DNA of 64,000 nt from an uncultured virus (IMG/VR IMGVR_UViG_3300030613_000009). Lineage: Duplodnaviria; Heunggongvirae; Uroviricota; Caudoviricetes. Below, in pieces: positions 24,384-55,596 of the stretch. The notes under the pieces were generated by a model. The model searched no databases, was not told the DNA's origin, and saw nothing but the letters and a program-made list of their open reading frames with translations. The stretch is taken from positions 1-64,000 of IMG/VR virus record IMGVR_UViG_3300030613_000009; one strand, given 5' to 3'. The translations under genes and the position numbers were made by a program. Position 1 is the first letter of the stretch, and every line of letters starts with the position of its first letter.

Positions 24384-26861
24384 TTACCTCGCTAGACGGC
24401 CGCCACCGGGAATAAAAGCATCCAAAATTGCCCCAGCCGCTGCTTTGGCTCCAGCTTTGACTTCTGACGATTTGGCCGAAGTCTTGGCTGCCGCCGCCGT
24501 GGTACTTCCGGTGCTCTTGGAGATGACGTCTTCTGTGGCTCCCGCCAATCGTTGGAATTTTTCGGTCAATACATCTATTTCACTGGCAAAGTTCTTGAAC
24601 GATTCGGTCGCCGTCAACCGCTCTTTGTTTTGAGCGTACTCCTTGACTACGTCTTTGATGTTTGCCATGACGGCAACGCCATCCTTGAGCATCTGGTCCG
24701 CTTCGGCCCCTCGTTTGGCAGCCGATTCCGCATCTATGCCACCATACGGAAGGTTTTTCTTGGCCTTCAGTCCTCCCTTGCCTAAGCCTCCTGTGCCAGA
24801 CAACAAATCGACAAGCCCTATACCGCCTTCCGTGTCCCCACCCATCAATACCCCAGCCTCCACACCCAGCGCTTCGCGCATGGCTCTCGCCTCGGCCGCG
24901 CCAGCGCCCTTGCCTTTGCTCTTTGTCCCTAGGTCTGCCAAGAACTCGCGTTCGGACATGCCACTAGAGCGCATAGCGCGCATCGCTTTGCTGACTTCAT
25001 CTTGCCCACCTTGTTCGACATAGCGAGCAAAGAGCCCGTGCGCCTGTCCGCCGAGCTGGGAAATTGCCTGCTCTTTAGTGATTCCGAAGGCTCTGGCTTT
25101 GGCAGAAGAACCACCACCGGCGATTTCAGCCAATTCCTTGAACTGCATGTTTGCTAGAGCGTCCTGAGCGTAAGTAGTTCCACCAGGCATTGCACGAATC
25201 GCCGACGAGACGTTCATGCCTTTTTGGTAGTTGTCGAACCCCGCGCCAAGCCTGTCTGCAGCTTGCATTCCGAGTTGTGCCCGTTGGACTTGGTTGAAGT
25301 CTTCAGGTCCGTTTCCGAAACCGAATCCTTGCTGTACGGCCTGCAAAGCCCCAGCGCCCGTAACCGTACCTCGTGGGTCAAACCCAAACAAGCTCTGTCC
25401 CAATTGGATACCTGCCGCTGTGGCGATACCCCCACCCATCGCGGCGCGAGCCATGAAGTTGGCCTGGCCGTTGCCGCTACTTCGTGCCGCAGACCCCAAA
25501 AGCCCGCTGACGTCGAAGCCGGCTCGAGATGCGCCCATGATGCTGCCGGCATGGCTGCGAGCAAAGGCGTCACCCCCAATGTTCCTGGCCTGAGTCGTAG
25601 CTCCTGCTAATTCTTCTACGCTATATCCGGTACGGTGGAGAGCTGCTTGTCGTTTGGAGAAGTCGTCCGACCATTTGCCGGTCTTGTCCTGGTTGTAACC
25701 CCATCCCAATATGGCACTGCCCGTCATTCTGGTACTGCGGGTCTCGTCCAAAGACGCCAATGCGCGTCCTTGGTTGTCGTAGTTTATGTCTTTGATGCGC
25801 TGACGGAGCTTGTCGTAACCCTCATATTTGGCGGTCTGCATCGCTTCTGGAGTTAGCGCAGAAATGTCCTTGCCTAGGCTTTTGGCGGTTTTCCATCCAG
25901 CGCCAAAGAGCCGGCTTATATCTTCTTCAGTACTGCCAACCGAGCGCATGGCTTCGATTTGGTCTTGGCCGGACATGCCGGCAAGAGTTCTATCTGCCAT
26001 TGCGTCTGAAATATCTGCACGGCGCATGCGCTCCCAGGCGCCACGAACGGCCTGACCGCGCCCAGCACGCGTGTCTATCATCATGTTGTTGAGGCCTTGG
26101 GACGTGCTCGCTACCGCCTGTGCCCCACCCGCCACGAGTCCGGCCGAGCGAAAGGCCACGGCTCCAGCCCCAGAGCCCATCAATGATTGCAACAGACCCT
26201 GAGGGCTGATGTTCCCGGGCCCAATCGGAGTCATCAACCCCGCCCCGATGTTTCCGTTGCCGAATTGCCATGCTGCTCCAGCAAGCCCCGTAGGCATGCC
26301 TGGGAGCCCGCTACGAGCACCGGGGAGCATTCGTGGGCCCGACATCGGGTTCAGCCCACGGTCGTCACCAAAGCCCTGCAGGACGCCTAGGCCGGCTTGT
26401 GCTTGCCTGATTTCGGCTGCGACCTGAATCATCTCTTTTTGGACGAATGCTTGGGTGCCCTTGCCTTTGAGCTTGTCGTAGGTGTCGCCCAACGCATTCA
26501 AGGAGCGCTGTAGTGAATCGAGTTGGGTCTTTTGCTGTTGGGTGGATGTCTTGAGAGCATCAGTCAGCCCCTTCAAAGAAGCCGTGCCCAACGTAGCCAT
26601 ATTCTTGAAGACGTTGGCGTTTGCGTTGATGCCTTGGGCGATAGATGCGGTCGGCCCACCGCCTCTGTTGCCACCAACCCCTGCGCCCGTTACCCCGCCA
26701 CCGCTCAGCAACCCACCACCACCGCCAGGCATACCTACCCCCTGCAGGGCTTTTGCCAGCTCCTTCGCTTTTTGGGTCATCTCAGTCAAAGCACGACTGG
26801 CAGCTTGAAAGCCTGCTTGCTCTAGTGAAGCTGAGATTTTGAGTTCTTTACCGGAGGCCAT
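24384..26861 (-). CDS. tail tape measure protein
   Basis: 825 aa, Ala/Gly-rich, follows chaperones, starts ELKISASLE. Confidence 0.8.
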   Translation of the reverse strand: MASGKELKISASLEQAGFQAASRALTEMTQKAKELAKALQGVGMPGGGGGLLSGGGVTGAGVGGNRGGGPTASIAQGINANANVFKNMATLGTASLKGLTDALKTSTQQQKTQLDSLQRSLNALGDTYDKLKGKGTQAFVQKEMIQVAAEIRQAQAGLGVLQGFGDDRGLNPMSGPRMLPGARSGLPGMPTGLAGAAWQFGNGNIGAGLMTPIGPGNISPQGLLQSLMGSGAGAVAFRSAGLVAGGAQAVASTSQGLNNMMIDTRAGRGQAVRGAWERMRRADISDAMADRTLAGMSGQDQIEAMRSVGSTEEDISRLFGAGWKTAKSLGKDISALTPEAMQTAKYEGYDKLRQRIKDINYDNQGRALASLDETRSTRMTGSAILGWGYNQDKTGKWSDDFSKRQAALHRTGYSVEELAGATTQARNIGGDAFARSHAGSIMGASRAGFDVSGLLGSAARSSGNGQANFMARAAMGGGIATAAGIQLGQSLFGFDPRGTVTGAGALQAVQQGFGFGNGPEDFNQVQRAQLGMQAADRLGAGFDNYQKGMNVSSAIRAMPGGTTYAQDALANMQFKELAEIAGGGSSAKARAFGITKEQAISQLGGQAHGLFARYVEQGGQDEVSKAMRAMRSSGMSEREFLADLGTKSKGKGAGAAEARAMREALGVEAGVLMGGDTEGGIGLVDLLSGTGGLGKGGLKAKKNLPYGGIDAESAAKRGAEADQMLKDGVAVMANIKDVVKEYAQNKERLTATESFKNFASEIDVLTEKFQRLAGATEDVISKSTGSTTAAAAKTSAKSSEVKAGAKAAAGAILDAFIPGGGRLAR

Positions 26862-26873
26862 ATATTGTCTAGA

Positions 26874-27380
26874 TTACTGGATTTTAGGTGGGGGTCCGAA
26901 TGGCTGCGCATCGGGGAAGGCGTCGGTATCTATGTCTTCAAACGTCATATGTACATCTGGCGGCAAAGGCGCCGTAACTGCTTGGATTTTCACCTCCGGG
27001 ATAGCCATCTTCAGCTCGTCTTGGATGTCTTGGAGAGGGGCGGTAGCCTTCTTCTCTTCTTCTGCCAACGCTTCCCGGCCGAACTCCCACTGGTCCGCAT
27101 CTTCAGCGTCTTCTTGGCGTCTCATTTCGGCAAGCTTGTCCTCTGAAGTCAGCAGACGGTCGATTTCCGCTTGAAGGTCCCCATCTTCGTATCCTTCGTA
27201 ATGGGTCTCAAACCAATGCTGGAGGACGTCCTCCAGGGGCAAATCCTCCACAGCGTCTAGGGGAGTGTGGTACTCGTGTGAGTACCAACGCATTATTTTC
27301 CTCAACGTGTAATCAGAAGGCTCCTCGGCCACAGCGTGGACAGCGAGAAGCTTCAGATTGCGCAAGTACTGAGGTGTCAT
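26874..27380 (-). CDS. tail assembly chaperone (second)
   Basis: immediately upstream of tape measure; RWYS..YHTPL; acidic; ATGA overlap at 27380. Confidence 0.6.
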   Translation of the reverse strand: MTPQYLRNLKLLAVHAVAEEPSDYTLRKIMRWYSHEYHTPLDAVEDLPLEDVLQHWFETHYEGYEDGDLQAEIDRLLTSEDKLAEMRRQEDAEDADQWEFGREALAEEEKKATAPLQDIQDELKMAIPEVKIQAVTAPLPPDVHMTFEDIDTDAFPDAQPFGPPPKIQ

Positions 27381-27880
27381 GGGCAGTTGCCCAACCAATC
27401 AAGAACAGCGGAATACTCAGACGGACTTGAAATACGCATAAGGGGTATCCCAGCCTCCCTACAGTCCCTGTCTTTGCGAGCATCTCTATCGATTGCATCT
27501 GGAGTGCTATGCCAATACTTGCCGTCATACTCAACCGCCTTACGTAGGGAGGGCACAAATACATCTAACTCGAACTGCGGATTGTTCAAGAGCCCTCTTC
27601 GCCCACTAAGAGCGTCTGGGTGTCTTTCCTTGATGAGTTCGTACAGCGCTAGTTCCGCCTTTGAGTGTCGATGGAAACAGGCCGCACATCCCGATTTCAT
27701 AGATGTTCTGTCGTTTGGGGACGCTTCCCACTCATGGCCATCTTTGCATATCCACCAGACGGAGCGTTCGGACCCAAACGAAATATCGTCCGGCAACAGA
27801 CTTCCGTTTTTGGACCAATGCCACTCTGCCCCTAGATGAGGCGCCTTGACCAAAAACGGAATTCTGATTCGATGTGCCAC
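27377..27880 (-). CDS. Zn-ribbon plus Vsr/DUF559-like PD-(D/E)XK endonuclease
   Basis: EWH..KNG, VWWICKDGHEWEA, ELDVFVPSLRKAVEYDGKYWH, RKD..C..AGI.L.RI. Confidence 0.8.
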   Translation of the reverse strand: MAHRIRIPFLVKAPHLGAEWHWSKNGSLLPDDISFGSERSVWWICKDGHEWEASPNDRTSMKSGCAACFHRHSKAELALYELIKERHPDALSGRRGLLNNPQFELDVFVPSLRKAVEYDGKYWHSTPDAIDRDARKDRDCREAGIPLMRISSPSEYSAVLDWLGNCP

Positions 27881-27884
27881 GCTC

Positions 27885-28271
27885 TTACTCCTTTGTCGTC
27901 TTGCTTAGCGCCTCGGCTGCCTTTGATGCCGCCTTCTGAATATCTTCTAGGTGGGACTTCTCCACCTTATTCAGTTCGGCACCAATGGCAAGAACGACGT
28001 TGACGTCATCAAAATCAAGTCCGCAGTTTGCGTCCTTGAACCACGAAGGCGTCTCAACAGCATGGGTCTGAATGCGGGCGATAGTGCCCGCGACAAGCTG
28101 GGCCATTCCTCCGACCTCTCCTCCTTGGGGGCCCAGAAGGCTGCGCTTTAGGGCATCCATCTCGAGGATTTCACGCAGCGACAACTTGACGTTCACCTTG
28201 AACTTCCCGCGCAGGTTTTCTTCACCTTCGACGGGGATAGACACTACGAATTCTGCGGTCTTACGGGCCAT
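27885..28271 (-). CDS. tail assembly chaperone (first)
   Basis: GKFKV...ETPSWF motif; AGAGG RBS; TAATCT at 28341. Confidence 0.6.
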   Translation of the reverse strand: MARKTAEFVVSIPVEGEENLRGKFKVNVKLSLREILEMDALKRSLLGPQGGEVGGMAQLVAGTIARIQTHAVETPSWFKDANCGLDFDDVNVVLAIGAELNKVEKSHLEDIQKAASKAAEALSKTTKE

Positions 28272-28395
28272 ATGTAACCTCTGTTGGGGGTTGGAGTCGG
28301 CACTCAGTATACCACACGAGCACTTCGACCCTCGGACTGCAGATTATCTCCCCAAAGCGCTTGACACTGGGGTTTGTGGGGTATACTATTCATAT

Positions 28396-28530
28396 ATGGC
28401 AACCCCCAAAGAAAAGTACGCCGAGCTGCTCCTGAAGTACAACGAGTTGGTCACCAAGCACGAAGTAGCGTGTGATACTATCGACAAGCTCCAAGCGGAA
28501 CTCACCCGATTCACCACCCCCAACAAGTAG
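28396..28530 (+). CDS. small coiled-coil protein
   Basis: ATG 35 nt after TTGACA(28361). Confidence 0.6.
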   Translation: MATPKEKYAELLLKYNELVTKHEVACDTIDKLQAELTRFTTPNK

Positions 28531-28541
28531 CAAAAAAGAAA

Positions 28542-28751
28542 ATGAATACTTCCAAGTTGCAGCGCGGCGACCCAGTAAAAGCAGCACGTGACCTTGACCC
28601 CACCGGAGCTTGTGTGCCTCAGGGCACTCTGGGGGTTGTGTTCGAGGAAGCGGGATACTACGACATCGACGAAGGGCCAATGGTTCGCTGGTTCAATGGT
28701 GGGTGTTGTAGTGTGGCGGACGGCGACGTCATCTCCCCCGAGGAGGAGTAG
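28542..28751 (+). CDS. hypothetical protein
   Basis: ORF; GDPVKA...GTLGVV...VRW suggests a small beta barrel. Confidence 0.55.
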   Translation: MNTSKLQRGDPVKAARDLDPTGACVPQGTLGVVFEEAGYYDIDEGPMVRWFNGGCCSVADGDVISPEEE

Positions 28752-28813
28752 AGCGCGCAACGAATATGGTATAATCACCGCAGTCTAAATAACGCAGTGC
28801 AAGGAGTAACAAA

Positions 28814-29170
28814 ATGCAAAAGCTAAATACCGATGACGTCGTTTCCTTCCTGAAGTCAGCCCCCGCAACGGTCAACGAGGTTGCGGCCAAGTTCGCCGCT
28901 ACCAAGCAGACCGCCAACCGGGTGCTGGCCAATCTTCGCAAGGTCGGCACGGTAGCGGTGGTGTCGAGCCGCAACAAGGTGAACCCCCAGGGCGGTGCCG
29001 TTCGTGGCCGTCCGGAGTTCCTGTATGGCGTCCTGGCTGCAGGCGAGGTCGTAGAGACTCCCGCAGCTCCAGTGGGGGTTGTAGAGGTTCCGGTCGTTCC
29101 GGTAGAGGTTGCACTCTCCCCGCTCGAAGAGACCAAGACATTCTCTTTCGACGATACCGACCGGCCGTAA
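28814..29170 (+). CDS. winged-HTH DNA-binding protein
   Basis: TVNEVAAKF..TKQTANRVLANL...RGRPEFLY; TGgTATAAT and AAGGAG upstream. Confidence 0.75.
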   Translation: MQKLNTDDVVSFLKSAPATVNEVAAKFAATKQTANRVLANLRKVGTVAVVSSRNKVNPQGGAVRGRPEFLYGVLAAGEVVETPAAPVGVVEVPVVPVEVALSPLEETKTFSFDDTDRP

Positions 29171-29190
29171 AATCCGGGTGAATCTCCGTC

Positions 29191-29222
29191 AAGGCCCCGC
29201 GAAAAGAGTGTCTCGGGGCCTT
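29191..29222 (+). terminator. hairpin, probable terminator
   Basis: AAGGCCCCG...CGGGGCCTT inverted repeat with T-rich sequence after it. Confidence 0.55.
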
Positions 29223-29255
29223 GACGTTTTTCTAGCAACAAGGTACAACTACGCC

Positions 29256-29549
29256 ATGACTAAGACCCAACTTTTGCAGATTTTGTCTGATATTGGTGCC
29301 TGTCCCGCAGCCATGAAGTGGGTGCGAGACACTCCGGGAACCCCCAAAGAATTGTACCAAAAATGCCGCAACCGTATCTGGCTAGAGTTTGTCGTCGAAC
29401 GCTTATATTCCAGCTTCGATTGGTACGAATACCGCAAGGCATCCGGCGAGGACTGGAAAGAGTACTACTGCAGATTCAACCTCAAGGCCTGCAATATTAT
29501 CCGCAAAATGGTGCCGTGGGCAAAGCTCAAGAAGGCGCTGGAGAAGTGA
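29256..29549 (+). CDS. hypothetical protein, paralogue of 32800-33120
   Basis: AC..A..WVR.TPGTP.EL..KC...WLEF shared; ATG 35 nt after TTGACG. Confidence 0.75.
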   Translation: MTKTQLLQILSDIGACPAAMKWVRDTPGTPKELYQKCRNRIWLEFVVERLYSSFDWYEYRKASGEDWKEYYCRFNLKACNIIRKMVPWAKLKKALEK

Positions 29550-29989
29550 CTAGACACAAAATCTCCGTCTATGCGGACGGGTCCAGCACGGGGCGCCTTG
29601 AAGGTGCCACTGGATGGGGGTGGCTTGTCATCGATTGGACCGACGACAAAATCGTTTGTGCTGGGTCCGAAGGCTCACCCAATGGTTCTAATTCGACCGC
29701 AGAACTGCAAGCAGCCATATGCGGACTCAGGGCTGTTATGGACCGGAACGTGCATGTAGGAAACGACGTGACGCTGATATCCGACAGCCAATACGCCCTC
29801 AATCTAGCCAACGGTTCCTTCAAGGCTCACAAGCATCAAGAGCTGGTCAAATCTTTGCAGGCGCTGGTGGCGATAACAGGGGCCAAGACCCACTGGGTCA
29901 AGGGCCACTCGGGCGACCCCTTCAACTCGAAGGTAGACGCACTTGCCAAAGCAGGAAAAGAGCGGTATAGCCCCCCAAAAGGAGATTGA
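29546..29989 (+). CDS. rnhA: ribonuclease HI
   Basis: YADGS, NSTAELQA, ISDSQY, HWVKGHSG..N..VD.LA; GTG start overlaps upstream TGA. Confidence 0.92.
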   Translation: MTRHKISVYADGSSTGRLEGATGWGWLVIDWTDDKIVCAGSEGSPNGSNSTAELQAAICGLRAVMDRNVHVGNDVTLISDSQYALNLANGSFKAHKHQELVKSLQALVAITGAKTHWVKGHSGDPFNSKVDALAKAGKERYSPPKGD

Positions 29990-29990
29990 A

Positions 29991-30281
29991 ATGTTCAACG
30001 ACATTGGTTTTCTGACGAAGCTTGGTGACGTATCCGATGCCCATGCGCGGGCTGGACACCCACACCCTTGCGATTCTAGAGGTCCGCAGGAGGTGCTATT
30101 CGATTCGATGCCCAAGGTTGGGGAACGGTGGGAGTTTGTTCTGGATGGACGGGTATGCGCGACGTCCCACGTAAAGGAGCGCTCGACCTCCTGGCCAGCA
30201 AAATGCTTGATGGAGATTGTCTTTTCGACTTCCAATTCAAAGTACAAGCTGGAGCTTGACATCGCCGACTTTATCGGGTAG
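29991..30281 (+). CDS. hypothetical protein
   Basis: AAGGAG RBS before ATG 29991. Confidence 0.6.
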   Translation: MFNDIGFLTKLGDVSDAHARAGHPHPCDSRGPQEVLFDSMPKVGERWEFVLDGRVCATSHVKERSTSWPAKCLMEIVFSTSNSKYKLELDIADFIG

Positions 30282-30292
30282 GTTCTCTCTAT

Positions 30293-30417
30293 CAAAGAAG
30301 AATGACGAATGTCAAGGTGCGGGAATACAATTACTTCGAGTCACCGACCGAGAATACATTAAGTCCCCCGAAGAAACCGTGCGAAGGGTGCTTTTGTGGA
30401 TTGACAGCCCCGACTAG
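30293..30417 (+). pseudogene. C-terminal remnant of Vsr/DUF559-like endonuclease
   Basis: KKNDECQGAGIQLLRVTDREY...TVRRVLLWI matches RKNQQCLDAGIKLLRVKDSEY...TIKRVLDWL of 46265-47230; no start codon. Confidence 0.75.
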
Positions 30418-30451
30418 GGGTGGTACCTTCCGCTTATCAAAGGAGAAAACC

Positions 30452-30670
30452 TTGAAGTACCACGTACAGATGGAACGCACAATCGATATCATCGTGGAAG
30501 CCGACGACCGGCGAGCGCTAGAAGCTGCGCTTGCCCGACTGACCGGGGAAGAGGGCAACGCCCTTGCCGTAGCCTCCGGAAGTGACTGGCAATACTTTAT
30601 CGGCCCCCCAATGGGCCCAGCAAAAGCTGCATACATCGTAACCGACGAACAACTTAAGGAACTACCGTGA
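30452..30670 (+). CDS. hypothetical protein
   Basis: TTGACA(30401) promoter, AAGGAG RBS, TTG start. Confidence 0.6.
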   Translation: MKYHVQMERTIDIIVEADDRRALEAALARLTGEEGNALAVASGSDWQYFIGPPMGPAKAAYIVTDEQLKELP

Positions 30671-30972
30671 GCCACATTATCAGCAACGACCTCGTGATGT
30701 TTGCAGCCATCAAGACTCACCCCAATGCGGAACGCATCGAACTGGCCCAAATCGCCCATGAGCTTGCTGGGCGTCCGTGTGGGTCCTTCGTCTACGACAA
30801 GACGATGTGGCTCGCCCTACTGGACCGTCTCTTGATGCTCGGGTACGTCCAGAAGGTAGGGGTCAACTTCGCCCCCACCAAGGTCGGGACCGACTTCCTC
30901 GGTCGCCGGGCTCTGGAGAATCAGGCACAGGCTGTCCGCGTCTACCAGGCCATCGCATTCGGAATTTTCTGA
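30667..30972 (+). CDS. hypothetical protein
   Basis: GTGA overlap; AAGGA RBS. Confidence 0.6.
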   Translation: MSHIISNDLVMFAAIKTHPNAERIELAQIAHELAGRPCGSFVYDKTMWLALLDRLLMLGYVQKVGVNFAPTKVGTDFLGRRALENQAQAVRVYQAIAFGIF

Positions 30973-42934: not shown

Positions 42935-45190
42935 TTACTTGGGATTATTTAGTCTGGCAAAAATACCAGGGCGAGATTGGGGCTGAACGGAAACCGTTGT
43001 GGTGGTCCGATGGATGGGCTTGACGGGAGCCGGTGGCTTGTAGGCTCCGGCCATTGCGTCGGCAAACATTGCGGCACGGTCCTCTTGCTCGTGTGGGGCT
43101 GGGAGCTTGACCTTAGGGGTTGGAGCTGCCGATGGGGCGCCCATTGCTTGGCTTTCGCGGTGGGCGATGTCAGACATCACGCCCTTGCCGAGTGGCGGCA
43201 TTTTTGGGGCTGTCGGTGGTTTCGGGATGCTGCCGCCAGCAGCAGGCTTCATTGCATTGCCTGGCTTGGAAACCGGCGTCTTGGTACCCATGTTTGCGCC
43301 AGACGGGGGTTTCGCCATAGGCGGCTCTGCCTTCTGGGTCGGCGACTTGACTGGAGTCTCTTTGTGTGGGAAGTCCCGTGGCTTCTTGGTGGGTGCCGGC
43401 TTGGCAGAAGACTCTTCTGCATTCCTACCTTCGCCGCTCACCTGCCAGGGCTTGCCTTGATAGAATGGACCTGGAGCATGGCGCGGGTCGCCCTTGCGAA
43501 TGTCCGACAGCGTTTTGCCCTTCTTGATTTGCCCGCCTGAACCTTCGGCAGATACTTCCTTCGAAGTCGCAGGCATCTTGGTGACTACGCCGTTGCAGGA
43601 CTGCTTGCCCTTGGGGTCGACGAGTTCGTCCTTCTTGATGCAGGCACATTCAGACTTGCCACAGCCCTTGCAAAGCTCGGCCTTTTGGGCGACCATCGGG
43701 CGTACGGCGGTTCCACCGTGGAGAGGGTCGTTCTTGCCTTGAGGATTGAGGTGGGCGGGAGCTACGTCCTCGATGCCGGACGAGACGGTCGTGCCTACGT
43801 TGTGTTTGTGGGGAGGAATGAGAGCCTTGGCCATTTCCCTTTTGCGCAAGTCTTCGATTTGTGCCGTAAGGTTCTTAATACGGTCTAGAGCAGCTTGTCG
43901 GTCGATAGGATTGGCCACGTTTTTCTCCTGCAATGTCGAAAAGATTACAGCACTTTCCGATTTTGCGGTAACCACACCTCGACCTGGCCCAGCGTTGGCT
44001 GGACTGTTGAGGTGTGCTGTCAGCATTTTGTGTATTTGCGCGCCTTGCGGGTGCGTTTGTAGGGCTGCGATGAAGTTGGGATGGTTCATGTGCTGGGTGA
44101 TGAACTTGCCTCTGGCTGGAGAGCCCTTCGGAAGAGCCTTGAGTCCTTGCGTGAATCCTTCAACGGTACTGTGGGTTCCTGCCGGAATTTCTGCCTTGTG
44201 CACTCTCATCTTGCGGGGGTGTATCTTTTTGTACTCTTCCCGAGTATGGAACTTGCCCTTTTCCGTGTAGCCCTCGTCGTAGTTTTCTTTGGGCTCGGGT
44301 AGTTCTTTGTGGTCGTGGTAGGCTGTATCGGTTTCGGTCACGCTGCCGGTGGTTTTGTGGCGCCAGGCAATCTTGACTTTGGGCTCAGCTTTGGCCATAG
44401 GCTGACTACCGCGTACTAGGTCCAGCGCGATAGATAGAGGAACTTCATGCGAGTGAGGGACGAACCCGATTTGCTCCATGTTTGGGAGAGTGCTGGCGAC
44501 CGCTACGTGTACAGCATTCGCCATCGCGCAATTGTGCTCACGGTTGAAGACGTCATCGGAAATATGCATACCGAGAGCCCCAGCCAACTCGCGCTGCTTC
44601 CTGGAAGCTAGGTCTTCCCAATGAACGTCAGATTCCGGACTCGGCGCTGGTCCGTACAGTTTGTCGATTTCTGGCTTGGTCAATGCTCGGGCTAGCTGGA
44701 TGAGGGTCTGCTTTGCGTTTTCCGTGTTGAATTGCTGGGGGTCCGTCTCCCCTGGGTCATGGACAGGAAGGAGGCCGGATTGGAAGTCGTGTTCTGGGGC
44801 ACGAGACCCGTACCTGCCGCCGTGCAGGAAGGACTTGAAGCCGTAGCTTTGGACTAGCTTGTGTATTTCTGGTAGCTTGGTCCGAAGGTCATAGGCGGAT
44901 GGGGTAGCTGCGCCGGCCCCCATGGCTGCACCGAATGGAGTCAACAGAGACGGGATGTGCTCACCCTGGCCAGCCAGTTCGGCGCCTAGGTCGGCTACGA
45001 TGTCTGGTTCAGCCTTGGTGAGACCTGGCTTCTTGGTTTGGGCTCTGCTTCTGAGGGCAGCAAGGGCGCCTTGGTTGGCGTGGGTCGCCTCCGTCTGCGC
45101 TGGGAAGTATGCGTCCACCCCGCTCATAATACCGAATGAGCCCTGGCCAGAAAAAACTGGATGGTTTTGGAGGTGCGGAGGAATAGCCAT
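42935..45190 (-). CDS. late, low-complexity putative internal head polyprotein
   Basis: TAATCT 7 nt before ATG; modules separated by TKAE, AKAE, HKAE, AKSE, AKAL, QKAE. Confidence 0.65.
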   Translation of the reverse strand: MAIPPHLQNHPVFSGQGSFGIMSGVDAYFPAQTEATHANQGALAALRSRAQTKKPGLTKAEPDIVADLGAELAGQGEHIPSLLTPFGAAMGAGAATPSAYDLRTKLPEIHKLVQSYGFKSFLHGGRYGSRAPEHDFQSGLLPVHDPGETDPQQFNTENAKQTLIQLARALTKPEIDKLYGPAPSPESDVHWEDLASRKQRELAGALGMHISDDVFNREHNCAMANAVHVAVASTLPNMEQIGFVPHSHEVPLSIALDLVRGSQPMAKAEPKVKIAWRHKTTGSVTETDTAYHDHKELPEPKENYDEGYTEKGKFHTREEYKKIHPRKMRVHKAEIPAGTHSTVEGFTQGLKALPKGSPARGKFITQHMNHPNFIAALQTHPQGAQIHKMLTAHLNSPANAGPGRGVVTAKSESAVIFSTLQEKNVANPIDRQAALDRIKNLTAQIEDLRKREMAKALIPPHKHNVGTTVSSGIEDVAPAHLNPQGKNDPLHGGTAVRPMVAQKAELCKGCGKSECACIKKDELVDPKGKQSCNGVVTKMPATSKEVSAEGSGGQIKKGKTLSDIRKGDPRHAPGPFYQGKPWQVSGEGRNAEESSAKPAPTKKPRDFPHKETPVKSPTQKAEPPMAKPPSGANMGTKTPVSKPGNAMKPAAGGSIPKPPTAPKMPPLGKGVMSDIAHRESQAMGAPSAAPTPKVKLPAPHEQEDRAAMFADAMAGAYKPPAPVKPIHRTTTTVSVQPQSRPGIFARLNNPK

Positions 45191-48442: not shown

Positions 48443-48676
48443 ATGAAACTTAGCGCCTATGAGTCGTCAGTCTTGGCCTTTTTGGCCCAACGCCCTGAAA
48501 GCCTGGCCTCGTTTCGGGACAAGCTCGGCCTGGATGCAGTGGCGATTGCCGACTATTTGGCCGGGAATCAGAGCGCTAGGCAAGACATCCAAGAGACCGG
48601 AGATGCCATTCTAGCTTGGGCCAAAGGGTGCCAGGAAAGGCAACAGCTAGAATTAGAGTCTAGCCTATATGATTGA
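48443..48676 (+). CDS. hypothetical protein
   Basis: AGGAG RBS. Confidence 0.55.
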   Translation: MKLSAYESSVLAFLAQRPESLASFRDKLGLDAVAIADYLAGNQSARQDIQETGDAILAWAKGCQERQQLELESSLYD

Positions 48677-49679
48677 GCTAGGGGAAGGTTTGGCTCCAAA
48701 AGCAAGGTCGTGTACTGTGTACGTTCTCTTCGTCGAGGAGGAGCTGCGCTATGTCGGCCAAACATGGGGCGACCTCCGAAAGAGACTCAATAAACACCGA
48801 CGCCCCGGGCCAAGAGACCAAACCCACCGGGCCCGTCTTTTTCGCAGATGCGCTCTCCTTCATATTCCAACAAGAATACAGTCACTACAAACGGGATTAA
48901 CATCCCAGAGTCAAGCGGACGAATGCGAAATCTATTGGATTGACTTTTTTCGTAAAAAAGGATGCAGATTGGTCAACGAGACTGATGGCGGACGGGGTGG
49001 AGCCGCATCTGCCGCCGTAGTGCAAAAACTTCGCCGAGCCCGAACGGGTATTACGGAAGAGCAGGAGAGGGAAATTTGTTCACTGTATCCCAGGCTCAAT
49101 ACGCGCCGACTTGCCGAAAAGTTCCAGGTGTACCACCAAAGTATTATCTATATCCTGAAATCACACGGCATTGCGCGCCAAGATAGGTTCTCATCCCAGG
49201 GCGGCCTCACCCTTTCGGAACAGTCTCAGGCTCTGTTTGATTACTTGTCTGGTATGTCGGCTCCCGAAGTTGGAGAGAGGTATCACTGCTCTCGCACTCT
49301 GATATACGGCATATTAGATAGGGCGGGGCTGCGCGCTCGGTCAGATTCCGAGGCCCTCTCCATCCTAGACAGGAGCCAAGCGCTTATAGCTTATGTGAGG
49401 TATATTCATGGCGACACCATTCCCACGCTCGCAGTGTCTTGTCGGTGTAGTTCCGCTGCTGTCCGCAACGCATTCAAAAGAAATAATTTGCCACTAAAGG
49501 ACAAGTGGGCGGTCCGCGCCCCAGATGGAACCGTCTTTGCTTCTGTAAAGGCGGCGGCGGCGCATTACGACGTCGAAGAAAATACCATCAGCAAGGGGTT
49601 CAGTAAGCCGGTGCGTGGGGGTCTCTTTAGCCGCGTACCTCCACAAATATCAGAGAGTGGAGTCCAACCTGCGAAGTAG
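48669..49679 (+). CDS. GIY-YIG homing endonuclease with tandem HTH-like repeats
   Basis: TVYVL...RYVGQT...RLNKH, EIYWI, LVNETDGG; three HTH-like units and NUMOD1-like tail. Confidence 0.85.
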   Translation: MIELGEGLAPKARSCTVYVLFVEEELRYVGQTWGDLRKRLNKHRRPGPRDQTHRARLFRRCALLHIPTRIQSLQTGLTSQSQADECEIYWIDFFRKKGCRLVNETDGGRGGAASAAVVQKLRRARTGITEEQEREICSLYPRLNTRRLAEKFQVYHQSIIYILKSHGIARQDRFSSQGGLTLSEQSQALFDYLSGMSAPEVGERYHCSRTLIYGILDRAGLRARSDSEALSILDRSQALIAYVRYIHGDTIPTLAVSCRCSSAAVRNAFKRNNLPLKDKWAVRAPDGTVFASVKAAAAHYDVEENTISKGFSKPVRGGLFSRVPPQISESGVQPAK

Positions 49680-50471
49680 GTCTGGCACAATCTTTGTCTC
49701 CCATACCTTCAAAGCCCAATCAGCAGTAGTATCCATAAGATTCCTGGCTGGGGTCCCAGGATGGTACCAGCGGCCCTCGGCATAGTGCTTGCTTGACGCC
49801 ACGCGAAACGTCATGATGTCCTTGCGCACCGACGACTTCCCGGCCGCATTCTTTATTTCGCGCTGGTAGACGTTGACTCGGTTCAAGAATGGAATGCCAG
49901 TAGGTCCTTGCCTCGGTGCTCCGATAGGACCGTGGCCCTGCCCTGGGCCTTGAGCTGTCTTCATCGGCGCCCAAATGTCGAATGTATGCAGCTTCCCCAT
50001 CTTGGGTTTGCCGTGCTCGTCCGTCTCGAGCTTGCCGTATGGGATTTTCCGCTGTCGCATTTCTTGCTTTATCGTCGAGGTGAGGTCGTTTTGGGCTGGA
50101 GTTTGCCTTGACGGTCCTTTGTTGTGTTGGAATGGCACGACGATGTAGGTCGAACCGTCTTTTGCCGTCTTCGCCTTAGGGCTAGACAGCAAGTCATCCA
50201 ACATAGTGCCTTCCGGTTTTCCTTCTTCTATCCACATCGCGGAAGCGTCCAAGGATATGACCCAAGCGTCTTTGGAGATTTGCTTGAAGTTCAAGGCCGA
50301 AACATACTTGTCCCGGGTCGCGTGGAGCTTGGACTGGGCCTCTTCTAGAACGTGGGCGTGAGCCTGCAAAGCTAGCCCTTGAGCCGCTTCGAGGAGGGCT
50401 GTTTGGACCTTGGGCTCAAGCTCCTTTTGAAGGTCTAGTATTGCCGTCAAGTCTACATTCAGCGAAATCAC
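49650..50471 (-). CDS. neck/tail completion-like virion protein
   Basis: WIEEG, YIVVPF, MTFRVAS...WYHPG motifs. Confidence 0.6.
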   Translation of the reverse strand: MISLNVDLTAILDLQKELEPKVQTALLEAAQGLALQAHAHVLEEAQSKLHATRDKYVSALNFKQISKDAWVISLDASAMWIEEGKPEGTMLDDLLSSPKAKTAKDGSTYIVVPFQHNKGPSRQTPAQNDLTSTIKQEMRQRKIPYGKLETDEHGKPKMGKLHTFDIWAPMKTAQGPGQGHGPIGAPRQGPTGIPFLNRVNVYQREIKNAAGKSSVRKDIMTFRVASSKHYAEGRWYHPGTPARNLMDTTADWALKVWETKIVPDLLRRLDSTL

Positions 50472-51343
50472 TGGGCTTGTCCCATTGACCCATCTTGCAC
50501 TCGTACAAAAGAGTACCCACCGACAGTCTTGCGCCGCCCGCTAAGAACAGAAGATACATGCGACCGTTGTATTCCAAGTGCTCGCGCCGCTGAAGCTGCT
50601 GTACTGTAAACTATACCGTTTTGGTCGCGTATAGCGGTACCGCCCTGTCTGCGCGAATTGGCTAGATTGTGTGCCTCATCGTATTTTTTCCCTTTTGTAG
50701 AGCTCCCATTAGGTCGAAACTTGGCCTCTAGGACTTTTAACGCCAGTGTGTGTTTGCGCGGAAGACAAATTTCGGGGTAGTCGCTATACTTCAGCGCGCG
50801 GATGGCCCTTTGCGCTGGTCTAACGCCCGAATATTCAACCCTAAAGATGGATTTGTGGGATCGAATATTGGCGCGATGTTGAGTGGTATTTTCAATGTAG
50901 TCCCGGAAACCGGTTACCATGTGTATGTTGCCACAAAAACCAACAGTGAAGTTCGAGCCGTGATCTATAACCCACCCATCACCATCTACACATCCGCGCC
51001 AATAATGGGGTAACAGTTCGGATGGCCCAGTCCAAGGAGAAATCGTAAATGTCTTATTGTTGGAAAACCCCAATAGGCGTAAATCTCGGACTATCTCGGA
51101 CCCGTAAACCTTAAGAGTTGCCTGCGTCCCTGTACTCCTGGACATTGGGCGCTCGGTTATTTTATGCGAACTGTGCATCCAGCCACGAATTCGCTCTAGA
51201 ACGGTCCTATCTCCTTTTTGGAGACTCAATACCATCCCGTTCTCAGCTACATGTCCATCCGTGGCCATAAAACCTAAGGTGTATGCCTTTTCGGGCGTAT
51301 CTATCGACCGGAAGAAATCCCTATCGGCTTCGTATTGTATCAT
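50468..51343 (-). CDS. LAGLIDADG homing endonuclease with NUMOD1-like tail
   Basis: AYTLGFMATDG and YWRGCVDGDG; YSTAASAARALGI...GGYSF. Confidence 0.88.
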   Translation of the reverse strand: MIQYEADRDFFRSIDTPEKAYTLGFMATDGHVAENGMVLSLQKGDRTVLERIRGWMHSSHKITERPMSRSTGTQATLKVYGSEIVRDLRLLGFSNNKTFTISPWTGPSELLPHYWRGCVDGDGWVIDHGSNFTVGFCGNIHMVTGFRDYIENTTQHRANIRSHKSIFRVEYSGVRPAQRAIRALKYSDYPEICLPRKHTLALKVLEAKFRPNGSSTKGKKYDEAHNLANSRRQGGTAIRDQNGIVYSTAASAARALGIQRSHVSSVLSGRRKTVGGYSFVRVQDGSMGQAQ

Positions 51344-51396
51344 ATACAATCAGATTACATCGTTCTAGAGTTAGTAGGCTTACCGGTCGCCACCTC

Positions 51397-52965
51397 TTAC
51401 GATGACTGCCTCCTGGACGAAATGGGGCGCCCCTCTGTATCCATGATTAATCCCGCGCGCACACTTCTCCACGTTGTACTACCATCCGGCTTTTGAATTT
51501 TGATTTTCCCGGCGTCTTTCGTCCCACCCGGGCCGGGCTCTTTTGTGGACCCCACCGGATAATTTACTTCGTGGCGTCCCGTCTTGCCTGGGTCTAGGGC
51601 GGCCTTGTAATACTTGTCGTCGTCGGTAAGGTGGTCCTTCACGATTTCTTTGGCGCGTTCTGCGTCTAGCCCATGCTCTTTGCGCTCTTCCTTGACGCCG
51701 TGCTCTAGGTCATCCCGGGCAAACTCTTCGTCGGGAGCGTCGTCTCCTTTGCCGCCAGGCATCAAATCCTTGTGAAGCTCGCTATCTTCTGAAAACGATT
51801 CTTCTGGTGAGACCTCGACCTTGTCGTAAGCGAGACATTCGGGGCAATCGATGTCTGTTCCCGGTTCAGCGCCGCACATGGGACAACTGGTTGATTCAGA
51901 CTTCTTGACCTCAGCTCTGGAATCTTCTCCGGGATTGCTATCTCCTCCTTGAACGCTTCGGGCCATCTCAACCATGGCCTGCAGCATACCGACCAACGAT
52001 TGGTATAGCTCTGGGTCTGCCTGTTGGAGTTGCTCTAGTTCAGAAGCGCGCTTCTTGAAGACCTGTAGAATAGCCGCTACCCGCTTGGTCAGGTCGCCGT
52101 GGGCTTGGCCCTTGGCTTCGGCCGCTTGTTGGACTTGCTCGTCTTGGGAATCCTGTTGGCCTTGCTGGGAAGCTACTTGGCCCAAGGTGTCATGGAGCTG
52201 GTCCATGTCTATGGCTGGTTGTGCTGAGTTAGCGTCTGGGGGCGGACCCTCGCTGCCTTCTTGAGATGGCTCGGGGTCTGCATCTTGAGGTGGGGTGGGT
52301 ACCAACGGATGGGCAGTGGTAGGGCGCTGCTCTGGAACAAATCCGGCACCCGCGTTTTCGGCATAGGCGGGACCTTCCGCCTTTGCAAGGTGGGGCAGTT
52401 TCGGCTTGCGCTGGAAGAACTTGCCGTCATCCCCTACGAAGCCAGACAAAACCTTGCCGTCGATGGCGTCTTGTTGGAGTTCTTCGGGTAGACCTTCGAG
52501 GTCGTGGATGGACCCCGTGGGGTACACCTTGCCTGTGCGGGGGTCATGGAATGCCGCTTGCGTCTTCTGGAGGGCCGTGGCGAGGTCTTCTTCGACAGAC
52601 TGGTCATAGAGACGGATACGGTCGCCTCCAGCCTTCTGGGCTGCCTGGAGGGCTTTATCGGCCTCTGACATCTTGGCCCCCACACCGACCGAAACCGTCG
52701 CCCCAACCGTTTCGGCATATTGTGAGCGGAGGTGGGGAAGTTCGGTCAACTTTTCCGCTGGGATGCGAATTCGACCTTCGTCGCCATTCATGATGATGAC
52801 TTCGCCATTGTTGGCCAAAGCCCAGCTCTTCCAGCCGTCGTTGCCTGTTTCTTGCACTTGCGCGAAGCGTGCCATTCGCTCGAAATCGTCGGCGGCCGAG
52901 GCGTAATCAATTTCCTTCGGGTTCCGGTCGGTCTTGAATGCTAAGTAGACGAATGTTGATGGCAT
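51397..52965 (-). CDS. late multidomain protein: degenerate mCpol/GGDEF-like domain, Zn finger, DUF5661-like domain
   Basis: NGDEG...GATVSVGVGAKMSEADKAL; CPMC..CPEC; PGGKGD...GVKEE.KEH...EIVKDHL...YY; start 7 nt after TAATCT. Confidence 0.7.
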   Translation of the reverse strand: MPSTFVYLAFKTDRNPKEIDYASAADDFERMARFAQVQETGNDGWKSWALANNGEVIIMNGDEGRIRIPAEKLTELPHLRSQYAETVGATVSVGVGAKMSEADKALQAAQKAGGDRIRLYDQSVEEDLATALQKTQAAFHDPRTGKVYPTGSIHDLEGLPEELQQDAIDGKVLSGFVGDDGKFFQRKPKLPHLAKAEGPAYAENAGAGFVPEQRPTTAHPLVPTPPQDADPEPSQEGSEGPPPDANSAQPAIDMDQLHDTLGQVASQQGQQDSQDEQVQQAAEAKGQAHGDLTKRVAAILQVFKKRASELEQLQQADPELYQSLVGMLQAMVEMARSVQGGDSNPGEDSRAEVKKSESTSCPMCGAEPGTDIDCPECLAYDKVEVSPEESFSEDSELHKDLMPGGKGDDAPDEEFARDDLEHGVKEERKEHGLDAERAKEIVKDHLTDDDKYYKAALDPGKTGRHEVNYPVGSTKEPGPGGTKDAGKIKIQKPDGSTTWRSVRAGLIMDTEGRPISSRRQSS

Positions 52966-53044
52966 GTGACATAGATTATACCGATGGCGCTTGACACGCA
53001 AGAGGCAACCGAGGTAGGGTGTCGACGATAAGGGAGCTAACCAA

Positions 53045-53701
53045 ATGACACCAAAATACGAATTCACAGGCGAAACAAAGAAGTTCAATGGCATCACTCT
53101 CCGTCGCATCCGTCGTCTTTCCGATGGTTTGGTTGGAGGATGGATTGAATCCGAAGCCAACCTGAGCCACAAAGGCAAGTGTTTCGTCTACGGCGACGCC
53201 CAGGTCTACGGCAACGCCCGGGTCTCCGACTCAGCATGGGTCTCCGGCAACGCCCGGGTCTACGGCAACGCCCAGGTCTACGACGACGCCCGGGCCTCCG
53301 ACTCAGCATGGGTCTACGGCAACGCCCAGGTCTACGACGACGCACAGGTCTACGGCAACGCCCGGGTCTTCGGCGACACCCGAATCGACCGACCCTTTCC
53401 GACAACCGAAGAATTCATCGGCTGGAAAAAGGTCCGAGGGGCCATTCTGAAGCTCCAAATTCTCGGGACTCGAAGTGGGAGCTGGGGCGTCAAGTGTCGA
53501 ACGAACCACTGCCTCGTTCTCGAAGCGTTTCCCCTCGATGCCGGGTCCCAAGAGACTACTTTCGGGTCTCTGTACGACCTAAAGTTCACCTACACTGTAG
53601 GCAAGCGGGCCATGAGCTGGACTTACAATCCAGACACAACGGTAGAATACGGGGCCGGAATCCATTTCTTTTGTTCCCGAGTCGAAGCGGAGAATTACTG
53701 A
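53045..53701 (+). CDS. hexapeptide (VYGNAQ) beta-helix repeat protein
   Basis: 18-bp coding repeats at about 53185-53375; GGWIESEANL N-terminus; GIHFF C-terminus. Confidence 0.8.
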   Translation: MTPKYEFTGETKKFNGITLRRIRRLSDGLVGGWIESEANLSHKGKCFVYGDAQVYGNARVSDSAWVSGNARVYGNAQVYDDARASDSAWVYGNAQVYDDAQVYGNARVFGDTRIDRPFPTTEEFIGWKKVRGAILKLQILGTRSGSWGVKCRTNHCLVLEAFPLDAGSQETTFGSLYDLKFTYTVGKRAMSWTYNPDTTVEYGAGIHFFCSRVEAENY

Positions 53702-54705: not shown

Positions 54706-55596
54706 ATGGGATACCTTCACATCAACAATTTGTCCAAGGACGGGCGCATCCTCCAGCTTTTTAAGCGTGTATACGCATGTGAGAAAGTGCATGGAACTAG
54801 CGCACACGTGCGATTCGCGGGTGGTAAAATCTATTTCTTCTCTGGTGGCGAGAAGCACGAAACCTTTGTTAATATCTTTAACGCAGCGGACCTTCAGAAG
54901 GGGTTCGAGTGGGCCTTCCCTGAGCCCCCCACCAAGGTCGTAGTGTACGGGGAGGCCTACGGCGGCAAGATGCAGGGTATGAGTGGCACCTACGGCACGA
55001 GGGCACGCTTCATCGCCTTTGACATGGCTATCAACGACCGCTGGCTGCAGGTCGAACACGCCAAGCACCTGGCAGAAAGCCTCGGACTCGAATTCGTGGC
55101 CTTCAATCTGGTCGAATGCACCCAAGAGGCTCTGGACCATGAGCGGGACATCCCGTCGCGGATTGGCGTCCTCAACGCGCAGCGGGATGGGGTGGTCGAT
55201 TACGTCCCGAAGCCTGCCGAGGGCGTTGTCATTCGCCCCACCATCGAGCTAGACTACCGGCCCGGGGATAGGATTATCGCCAAGCACAAGCGCAGTGATT
55301 TCAGTGAGCGCAAGTCCAAGTCAGATACGAACCTCAACCCAGATAAGGCTCTGGAGTTGGCCACCGCAGAAGCTGTGGCTGAAGAGTTCGTGACAGAAAT
55401 GAGATTGAGCCATGTCGTCGACCACCTCAAGGGAGACCTTGGGCGCGAACTGACCTTCGCGGACATCCCGGAAGTCATTGACGCCATGATGGAGGACGTG
55501 TTACGAGAAGGGGCCGGTGAAGTCGAGAATACCAAGCCCAACCGCAAGGCCATCGGTAACGCTACAGCCAAGATGCTCAAAATGAGGACGCCATGA
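54706..55596 (+). CDS. RNA ligase, Rnl2 family
   Basis: motif I EKVHGTS, YGEAYGG, FIAFD, EGVVIRP, IAKHK, F.E; C-terminal VTEMRL.HV. Confidence 0.85.
   Translation: MGYLHINNLSKDGRILQLFKRVYACEKVHGTSAHVRFAGGKIYFFSGGEKHETFVNIFNAADLQKGFEWAFPEPPTKVVVYGEAYGGKMQGMSGTYGTRARFIAFDMAINDRWLQVEHAKHLAESLGLEFVAFNLVECTQEALDHERDIPSRIGVLNAQRDGVVDYVPKPAEGVVIRPTIELDYRPGDRIIAKHKRSDFSERKSKSDTNLNPDKALELATAEAVAEEFVTEMRLSHVVDHLKGDLGRELTFADIPEVIDAMMEDVLREGAGEVENTKPNRKAIGNATAKMLKMRTP

Follow-up and report, generated by a model that had tools for sequence, protein, structure and literature searches.

P0001, as we label it, is a 522-residue protein encoded on the minus strand of a 64,000-nucleotide stretch of DNA from an uncultured virus of the Caudoviricetes, a relative of Myxococcus phage Mx1 (IMG/VR record IMGVR_UViG_3300030613_000009, positions 1 to 64,000; hereafter 'the window'), which belongs to a 73,973-base contig. 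Sequence profiles and predicted structures identify its N-terminus as a genuine minimal CRISPR polymerase (mCpol) palm domain, and this copy of the domain is very probably inactive. The overall reading toward which we lean, with some reserve, is that of a modular late protein with an mCpol pseudoenzyme, carried as capsid cargo, cut at its linkers and serving a non-catalytic role. By sequence, P0001 belongs to a large, undescribed phage family (735 representatives) that carries mCpol at the N-terminus, and most of the interest lies with this family rather than with P0001 alone, because P0001 is a dead form.

51397–52965, minus strand: whole coding sequence of P0001, 522 amino acids (aa), with the start ATG at 52965 and the stop codon at 51397–51399; the start fits the N-termini of homologs
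52564–52965, minus strand: mCpol palm domain, aa 1–134, predicted inactive, as judged by Pfam, profile comparison with the PDB, AlphaFold2, Foldseek, VIA and alignment columns

The N-terminal mCpol domain and its active site

The mCpol domain was reportedly defined by Burroughs et al. in 2015. An initial annotation of this DNA had read the start of P0001 as a palm domain of the mCpol/Cas10/GGDEF type, an assignment now backed by family, profile and fold matches. First, Pfam family PF18182 matches aa 13–119 over profile positions 7–113/114 (107 covered) with an E value of 1.5e-5; the score of 25.8 bits lies 0.6 below the 26.4-bit gathering cut-off, and relatives of P0001 score 28–65 bits. Second, searching 1.84 billion representatives with aa 1–130 returned 735 proteins at E ≤ 1e-3, 424 of them at E ≤ 1e-10, and among the 150 matches listed the mCpol stretch is almost always N-terminal, in proteins that are mostly 300–1300 aa long. 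Third, a profile built from 113 relatives matches the mCpol chain 9nwn_B (E 4.9e-10) and the Klebsiella Panoptes protein OptS (9mnr_A, E 5.8e-10). A single-sequence search of the PDB with P0001 gave nothing relevant, PHROGs holds no family for P0001, and a Pfam scan of P0001 gave no GGDEF (PF00990) or Cas10 match at E ≤ 0.01, its hairpin reading NGDEGR.

The predicted structure agrees with the profiles. An AlphaFold2 model of aa 1–130, computed with the relatives' alignment, has a predicted local distance difference test (pLDDT) score of 95 and, by comparison in Foldseek and VIA, the minimal RRM-like palm fold with its β-hairpin. The Foldseek check that the annotation had proposed puts OptS/mCpol structures on top: all of the first six PDB matches are of this kind (template-modeling (TM) score 0.73–0.87, root-mean-square deviation (rmsd) 1.6–3.3 Å), Klebsiella OptS (KpOptS) being the best (TM 0.78–0.87, rmsd 1.6–2.0), with GGDEF domains and Csm1 next. 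VIA, searching structural representatives, likewise ranks 9mnr_A first (Z 16.5, rmsd 1.9 Å, 118 residues aligned of a 119-residue chain), ahead of the best GGDEF domain, that of YfiN (Z 12.8), and of Cmr2 (Z 12.2).

In KpOptS, Asp6 and Asp57 are catalytic, metal-holding and critical for full activity, according to the accessible part of the Panoptes paper. A HMMER alignment pairs Asp6 with the leading D of the family DGD motif, and pairs Asp57 with the E of the family GGDEG hairpin; motif counts were taken from an alignment of 177 relatives, 9 of which are without the N-terminal strand, leaving 168 scorable. The first motif of P0001 reads K11-T12-D13, where the family has D-G-D in 128, 135 and 160 of the 177 members, position by position, so that a lysine stands at the strand-1 metal-binding aspartate; the second reads N60-G61-D62-E63, where G-G-D-E is found in 136, 163, 145 and 144. 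Further departures from the family are the Gly16-Arg17 loop to Pro-Lys, Gly20 to Asp and Lys110 to Gln, and the equivalent of KpOptS Ser30 is Ala35. With Lys11 in place of the Asp6 equivalent and the Gly-Arg loop and Lys110 gone, the annotation's suggestion that the domain is catalytically altered is well founded. D13, D62, E63 and R65 are still present, the hairpin acid that corresponds to KpOptS Asp57 among them.

P0001 is not alone in this. Both acid pairs are intact in 125 of the 168 scorable members, which by appearance makes most of the phage relatives look like working cyclic-oligonucleotide synthases; the strand-1 pair alone is lost in 10 (P0001 included), the hairpin pair alone in 4 and both pairs in 29. 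In these 43 degenerate members conservation is lost exactly at positions 11, 12, 15, 16, 19, 20, 24, 38, 60, 62, 63, 87 and 110, and the fold core is kept (W45, W48, G54, S92, G94, G96, E101, L106 and G113). Because only columns linked to the active site decay while the fold core stays, the degenerate members appear to be pseudoenzymes kept for another purpose. A midpoint-rooted tree of the domain (~110 columns, catalytic columns masked) has an intact ancestor and at least 18 inferred changes, a rough count, and puts P0001 in an all-degenerate clade of 15 members with support of 0.93. Myxococcus phage Mx1, the sole cultured relative, is dead at both motifs (SWSID and GAVGV); its homolog, WNM70340.1, makes it the only homolog-bearing record among 50,697 phage records searched by tblastn with three family members. 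Trp45 and Trp48, which lie on a long helix (window ~52822–52833), are conserved at 80–95% in live and dead phage members; because KpOptS has Ile and Met there, the two tryptophans may form a family-specific surface.

Domain architecture, linker motifs and proposed packaging

Beyond the mCpol domain, the following elements can be placed on P0001:

52408–52557, minus strand: small α/β module, aa 137–186, with pLDDT block means of ~75–85; only part of the family has it
52216–52392, minus strand: disordered Pro/Gln-rich linker, aa 192–250, pLDDT mostly <50
52375–52389, minus strand: LAKAE, candidate prohead-protease site 1, aa 193–197, from motif search, pLDDT and proteome enrichment
51946–52206, minus strand: conserved helical middle domain, aa 254–340, found in 166 of 177 family members
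51895–51909, minus strand: VKKSE, candidate prohead-protease site 2, aa 353–357, from motif search and pLDDT
51835–51885, minus strand: CPMC-x9-CPEC putative zinc ribbon, aa 361–377, lineage-specific and of low model confidence
51616–51780, minus strand: DUF5661-like helical module, aa 396–450, with pLDDT of 93–96 over ~aa 411–450 and aligned to PF18905-positive relatives
51400–51612, minus strand: C-terminal β domain, aa 452–522, of no known family; 160 of 177 members have it, without exception at the extreme C-terminus

The full-length model of P0001 has a mean pLDDT of 76.9; in it the confident helical module spans aa 400–448 and the β domain aa 470–520. Two further modules named in the annotation stand in part. 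For the zinc finger, the Cys-x2-Cys-x9-Cys-x2-Cys pattern (C361, C364, C374 and C377) is there in the sequence, but it falls in a poorly modeled stretch (aa 341–392), and in alignment A2 the cysteine stretch is common only to P0001 and its closest relative. The DUF5661-like module aligns with the PF18905 stretch of relatives (P0008 at 27.3 bits, against a cut-off of 27, and P0109 at 36 bits), but P0001 has no PF18905 match of its own at E ≤ 1 when its C-terminal 149 or 267 residues are searched against Pfam.

Across the family there is a fixed frame of N-terminal mCpol domain, helical middle domain and C-terminal β domain, with inserts between them in relatives. Hidden Markov models (HMMs) built from the family find both the middle and the C-terminal domain in 159 of the 177 members, and the median distance between the end of the C-terminal domain and the terminus is 1 residue. 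Among 60 members of at least 640 aa, Pfam at E ≤ 1e-5 recognizes mCpol in 50, GNAT in 6, DUF5661 in 4, ART-PolyVal in 2 (P0027 is a third case), ParB_N in 2 and radical SAM in 1; the majority of the inserts carry no family name. Searching the ESM Atlas with the C-terminal 78 residues gave only sub-threshold, unrelated rows, and BFVD, searched with the full-length model, gave one uncharacterized family member and phage GGDEF proteins, leaving the middle and C-terminal domains unexplained. A resemblance of the helical middle domain to the FAT domain of focal adhesion kinase was set aside, the profile matches (E 0.07–0.8) not being significant.

Both candidate sites of P0001 lie within linkers of pLDDT <50, and similar motifs recur in the family. 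A loose form, [ILVM]xK[SAT][DE], noticed at domain junctions, occurs 269 times in 178 family proteins, compared with 42 ± 6.5 (maximum 60) in shuffled sequences. Because homology inflates this family count, the motif was tested on the whole proteomes of Mx1 and of G001, a complete 164,882-base IMG/VR contig that encodes a protein 92% identical to P0001. Counted in a strict form, [ILVM]xK[SA]E, the block of genes from head to neck in Mx1 holds 15 sites (within-protein shuffle mean 1.2) and the rest of the proteome 4 (shuffle 4.7); in G001 the numbers are 19 (shuffle 2.1) and 2 (shuffle 3.1). Fisher p values for enrichment in the block are 1.6e-8 (Mx1) and 6e-7 (G001), the motif being ~16-fold enriched in head and cargo proteins of these two relatives.

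The 199 open reading frames (ORFs) of G001 contain 26 motif sites, most of them concentrated in a few proteins. A 314-aa protein at the position of a scaffold, directly upstream of the major head protein, has 4, as does a 1295-aa protein that shows a faint head-protease match and a PI3/PI4-kinase-like end; a 1607-aa NUDIX giant protein and p751 have 3 each, the mCpol protein and a 771-aa protein 2 each, and the portal 1. In Mx1, 4 sites lie in a 290-aa protein just downstream of a GGDEF match, a likely scaffold position, with 3 in the NUDIX protein and 2 each in the portal and the mCpol protein. Both genomes have a portal site at residue 637. Within the mCpol family, longer proteins have more sites (0.58 rising to 1.73 per protein), a strict site lies no more than 40 residues past the middle domain in 83 of 166 members (site 2 of P0001 is at that position), and sites stand on both sides of the ART domain in two proteins and of the radical-SAM domain in one. 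The giant cargo-like proteins with multiple sites (G001 129152–133039, 152960–157783 and 158524–160839; Mx1 24404–30710) include NUDIX with ParB-like hints, the PI3/PI4-kinase-like end and the faint head-protease match; their genes belong to the head module or precede the mCpol gene.

The simplest reading of the linker motif is that of a maturation-protease site, which would make P0001 a processed capsid component; we infer prohead-protease processing and capsid packaging because the motif is enriched in head and cargo proteins. On this reading, the gene would encode a modular late protein of a ~165 kb Mx1-like myovirus, with an mCpol palm (the 134 N-terminal residues) that has decayed to a pseudoenzyme. 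The protein would be built into the prohead, where the maturation protease would cut after ~E197 and ~E357, in the two LxK[SA]E linkers that lie exposed, and the fragments would stay behind as capsid cargo, as polyvalent proteins do in other phages. The dead mCpol domain could be kept for a non-catalytic job, in assembly or in partner binding via the family-specific Trp45/Trp48 helix. In about three-quarters of the sampled relatives, by contrast, the domain would be a working cyclic-oligonucleotide synthase, probably serving to interfere with host nucleotide-based immunity. More generally, this family of modular phage proteins probably travels inside the virus particle.

Several points weigh against this reading. 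The motif was spotted by eye on this very family, and the block limits were drawn after the data had been seen. GNAT and ParB inserts are not bracketed by sites on both sides. For the prohead protease there is no more than a hint, a phrog_1028 match that covers 36 residues (E 3e-5), and a Peptidase_S77 search of the relatives gave no match, control genomes being silent too. Neither the middle nor the C-terminal domain is a packaging tag common to other cargo proteins, because both are confined to the mCpol protein: in the Mx1 and G001 proteomes, where this idea was tried and rejected, only the mCpol protein matches the C-terminal HMM, and the middle-domain HMM gives one marginal extra match (E 0.0016). 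Packaging and cleavage of P0001 are predictions from sequence patterns. On the enzymatic side, retention of D13, D62, E63 and R65 could leave room for residual or altered chemistry, and the loss count is rough, coming as it does from a midpoint-rooted tree of ~110 columns.

A late structural or assembly protein outside the head, for example one attached to the collar or neck with the dead mCpol domain as an oligomerization or docking module, is a rather doubtful alternative. T4 fibritin occupies the slot just upstream of the neck genes, the mCpol gene is always first of the block leading to the sheath, and the next gene has a weak HK97-gp10-like/Phage_tail_S lead. The fold core and Trp45 and Trp48 are conserved in dead members, and OptS is described, in the accessible Panoptes text, as a putative tetramer with a pocket that spans two protomers. 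Nevertheless, ART-PolyVal, GNAT, ParB_N and radical SAM inserts make little sense on an external fiber, the LxK[SA]E motif is common to scaffold-position, portal and NUDIX/kinase giant proteins, and long disordered acidic linkers are closer to internal head proteins than to fibers.

Nucleotide signals and known systems

The annotation had offered two roles for the domain, binding or perturbing cyclic-nucleotide immune signals, or co-option of a cyclase fold without catalysis. The whole substrate pocket of P0001 is eroded (K11, P16-K17, Q110 and A35), and for this reason the first role seems unlikely for P0001 and the second is favored; the mCpol family at large may interfere with cyclic-nucleotide signals. 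A domain that binds nucleotides without making them, as a sponge or decoy for signals of the cyclic-oligonucleotide-based antiphage signaling system (CBASS), type III CRISPR or Panoptes, is accordingly hard to reconcile with the loss of all of these triphosphate- and base-holding positions of OptS. Selection has kept the fold after catalytic loss, P0001 still has the acidic hairpin (D62-E63) and R65, and phages do use signal sponges such as Acb2 and Tad1 (accessible portions of PMC12657218 and PMC12657230). Against this, the hairpin acids are also lost in other dead members (29 of 168) and no sponge-like multimer is predicted, and we judge the sponge quite improbable; an uncontrolled homodimer prediction of aa 1–130 with the alignment (score 0.00, mark 0.42) has no bearing either way. 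Very improbable, finally, is a still-active synthase with an unusual metal site in which D13 replaces the first Asp and perhaps a different product is made: 160 of 177 members, and 81% of those that are dead, still have D13, and N-G-D-E-G-R nearly equals the family hairpin motif, but ~ten active-site-linked positions are lost in a coordinated manner, the 15-member clade of P0001 is wholly without the two-Asp/two-acid pattern, and both Asp6 and Asp57 are, per the accessible Panoptes text, needed for full OptS activity.

The closest known relatives of the domain are the Panoptes OptS/mCpol proteins (Klebsiella KpOptS, 9mnr and 9pd0; mCpol, 9nwn; PF18182), with which P0001 has the minimal palm fold in common and most phage relatives also the DGDxxGR strand motif and the acidic hairpin. 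In the accessible part of the Panoptes literature, mCpol is shown in 2025 to run the Panoptes guard system, a survey describes it as rare and mentions prokaryotic operons only, and OptS is a stand-alone bacterial enzyme of ~120–130 aa whose operon also encodes a nucleotide-sensing membrane effector (PMC12657218). There, the host mCpol makes 2′,3′-c-di-AMP or cyclic triadenylate (cA3) as a standing signal, the loss of which triggers the membrane effector. By contrast, the P0001 domain forms the N-terminus of a 522-aa phage late protein in a structural block, with Lys at the Asp6 equivalent, and no Panoptes-type operon partner (S-2TMbeta, CARF-TM or SAVED-2TM) is found nearby, the neighbors being a homing endonuclease and structural-block genes. 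Searches of five complete relatives for Cap15_CD_rec and SAVED gave no match in any of the five, with control genomes silent too, and no Tad2-like sponge turned up in those relatives that were searched for one. The superfold is also that of GGDEF diguanylate cyclases and of the Cas10/Cmr2 palm (Foldseek E from 1.6e-5), but the P0001 domain is shorter and without the GGDEF motif, and this phage group has a separate, intact GGDEF protein in the head module.

In overall design the family resembles the polyvalent proteins (Iyer, Burroughs, Aravind et al. 2017, PMC5512222), which are, in the accessible text, also multidomain and encoded next to virion genes, and for which GGDEF domains are noted and packaging and injection predicted. 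Relatives of P0001 carry hallmark modules of that class (ART-PolyVal, ParB_N and GNAT); set against the polyvalent criterion of at least two conflict-type domains in a single phage or plasmid polypeptide, P0001 itself has a dead mCpol domain, a putative zinc ribbon and a DUF5661-like module. Unlike polyvalent proteins, however, the family has a fixed three-part frame with inserts and no MuF or portal fusion was seen in it, and its linker motif suggests cutting by a prohead protease rather than by a built-in peptidase. The word mCpol is absent from the polyvalent-protein paper, and no description of phage mCpol was found in the searchable literature, which returned only Panoptes papers, the supplementary tables of which may list phage members.

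T4 internal proteins and phiKZ inner-body proteins are capsid-internal and cut by the prohead protease, as is T4 Alt according to the accessible part of its description. P0001 resembles such proteins in being the product of a late gene, in its disordered acidic linkers and in a site ending in Glu that recurs in the scaffold-position protein and the portal. Its site, [ILVM]xK[SA]E, presumably differs from the T4 and phiKZ consensus sites, and cleavage here is predicted from the motif.

The presence of mCpol at the head of a large family of phage proteins brings viruses into the Panoptes signaling story, and raises the questions of what use an mCpol enzyme is to a phage and why the enzyme is so often killed yet its fold kept. 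By analogy with the host systems, a virion-delivered phage mCpol could top up or mimic host standing signals. An extended form of this idea, in which Mx1-like phages deliver capsid-borne mCpol synthases beside an intact head-module GGDEF protein and so counter Panoptes-type guards, strikes us as unlikely. If it were true, members with a working enzyme would, once injected, produce a cyclic dinucleotide of the kind that serves Panoptes-type guards as an 'all is well' signal, the guard effector would be kept silent while the phage disarms CBASS-type signaling, and the counter-move would be delivered as a ready-made enzyme. P0001 would then represent a lineage with the weapon disarmed at least once, among ~18 independent losses, in which the domain was kept as an assembly module. 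For experiments, the LxK[SA]E motif is a testable handle on processed, capsid-carried proteins of large, almost uncultured phages, and Myxococcus phage Mx1 is a culturable entry point to the family.

Gene start and genomic setting

52973–52978, minus strand: TAATCT motif, 7 nucleotides upstream of the ATG and part of TATAATCT, from a sequence scan
50468–51349, minus strand: homing endonuclease gene (Pfam I-HmuI NUMOD-like, phrog_4645), inserted between the mCpol gene and p273
49650–50471, minus strand: p273, conserved downstream partner (phrog_16819, function unknown; weak HK97-gp10-like/Phage_tail_S lead)
48669–49679, plus strand: homing endonuclease gene with GIY-YIG and helix-turn-helix (HTH) domains, overlapping the 3′ end of p273 convergently by 30 nucleotides
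42935–45190, minus strand: p751, just upstream of the tail sheath, with no Pfam or PHROG family
53045–53701 and 54706–55596, plus strand: genes for a YdcK β-solenoid/DUF5758 protein and an RNA ligase (PF09414), divergent from the mCpol gene

The ATG at 52965 is taken as the start of the gene because homologs begin at the methionine of MPSTFVY; a 593-aa ORF from TTG 53178 is ruled out as the gene on the same grounds. The N-terminal strings quoted in the annotation (YLAFKTD, WALANNGEVIIMNGDEG and YAETVGATVSVGVGAKMSEADKALQAAQKAGGDRIRLY) all occur in the 522-aa translation, and the gene does begin, as claimed there, 7 nucleotides past a TAATCT on the minus strand. This hexamer occurs 24 times in the window, against 14.7 ± 3.6 expected, and 21 of the 24 are on the strand of the structural genes (minus-strand positions 52973, 51352, 46237, 45198, 35337, 26871 and 7677, among others); at no fewer than 7 sites a long ORF has its start codon 7–9 nucleotides further on, and in many cases the hexamer overlaps the stop codon of the gene before. 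In 12 of 16 related loci (L002–L015 are among those scanned) an AATCT(T) occupies the corresponding position ahead of the mCpol gene, and Mx1 has a GAGGA Shine-Dalgarno sequence where relatives have AATCT(T). In the uncultured relatives, TAATCT may act as a signal for late promoters or for the start of translation.

Relatives of P0001 are found on contigs of 150–182 kb. Synteny was compared across 16 loci, 15 from IMG/VR plus Mx1, and in 16 of 16 the mCpol gene heads a conserved block running to the tail sheath, with p273 as the next conserved same-strand gene. Beyond p273, as far as each locus extends, the order is p342, p751, sheath and p156, the sheath being seen in 10 of 16. The annotation's placement of the gene 'among neck genes' is solid as far as synteny to the sheath goes, but the neighbors are without a named family and the p273 lead is weak, so that neck genes are no more than a plausible description of them; profiles of p273 and p342 match no solved structure at E ≤ 10. 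p751 may likewise be cut by the protease, given that its G001 copy has LxK[SA]E at three places.

The I-HmuI-like insertion is present in the window and in G001, and in only one (L002) of the 16 loci. p273 is flanked by two homing-endonuclease genes, and the head module of G001 has many more HNH/homing endonucleases. The YdcK/DUF5758 and RNA ligase block is absent at that place in Mx1. The head module of G001 also encodes, outside the window (L023:13108–14268), the intact GGDEF protein (PF00990, 37.4 bits), with DGNDF and GGDEF motifs. A GGDEF match is found in 7 of 7 complete Mx1-like genomes, regardless of the state of mCpol, a distribution that led us to reject the idea that the head-module GGDEF protein substitutes for a dead mCpol. 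In some of these genomes the match lies within a reading frame of 1145–1473 aa (L035–L042), and in the G001 head-module protein a LAKSE site precedes the intact GGDEF domain.

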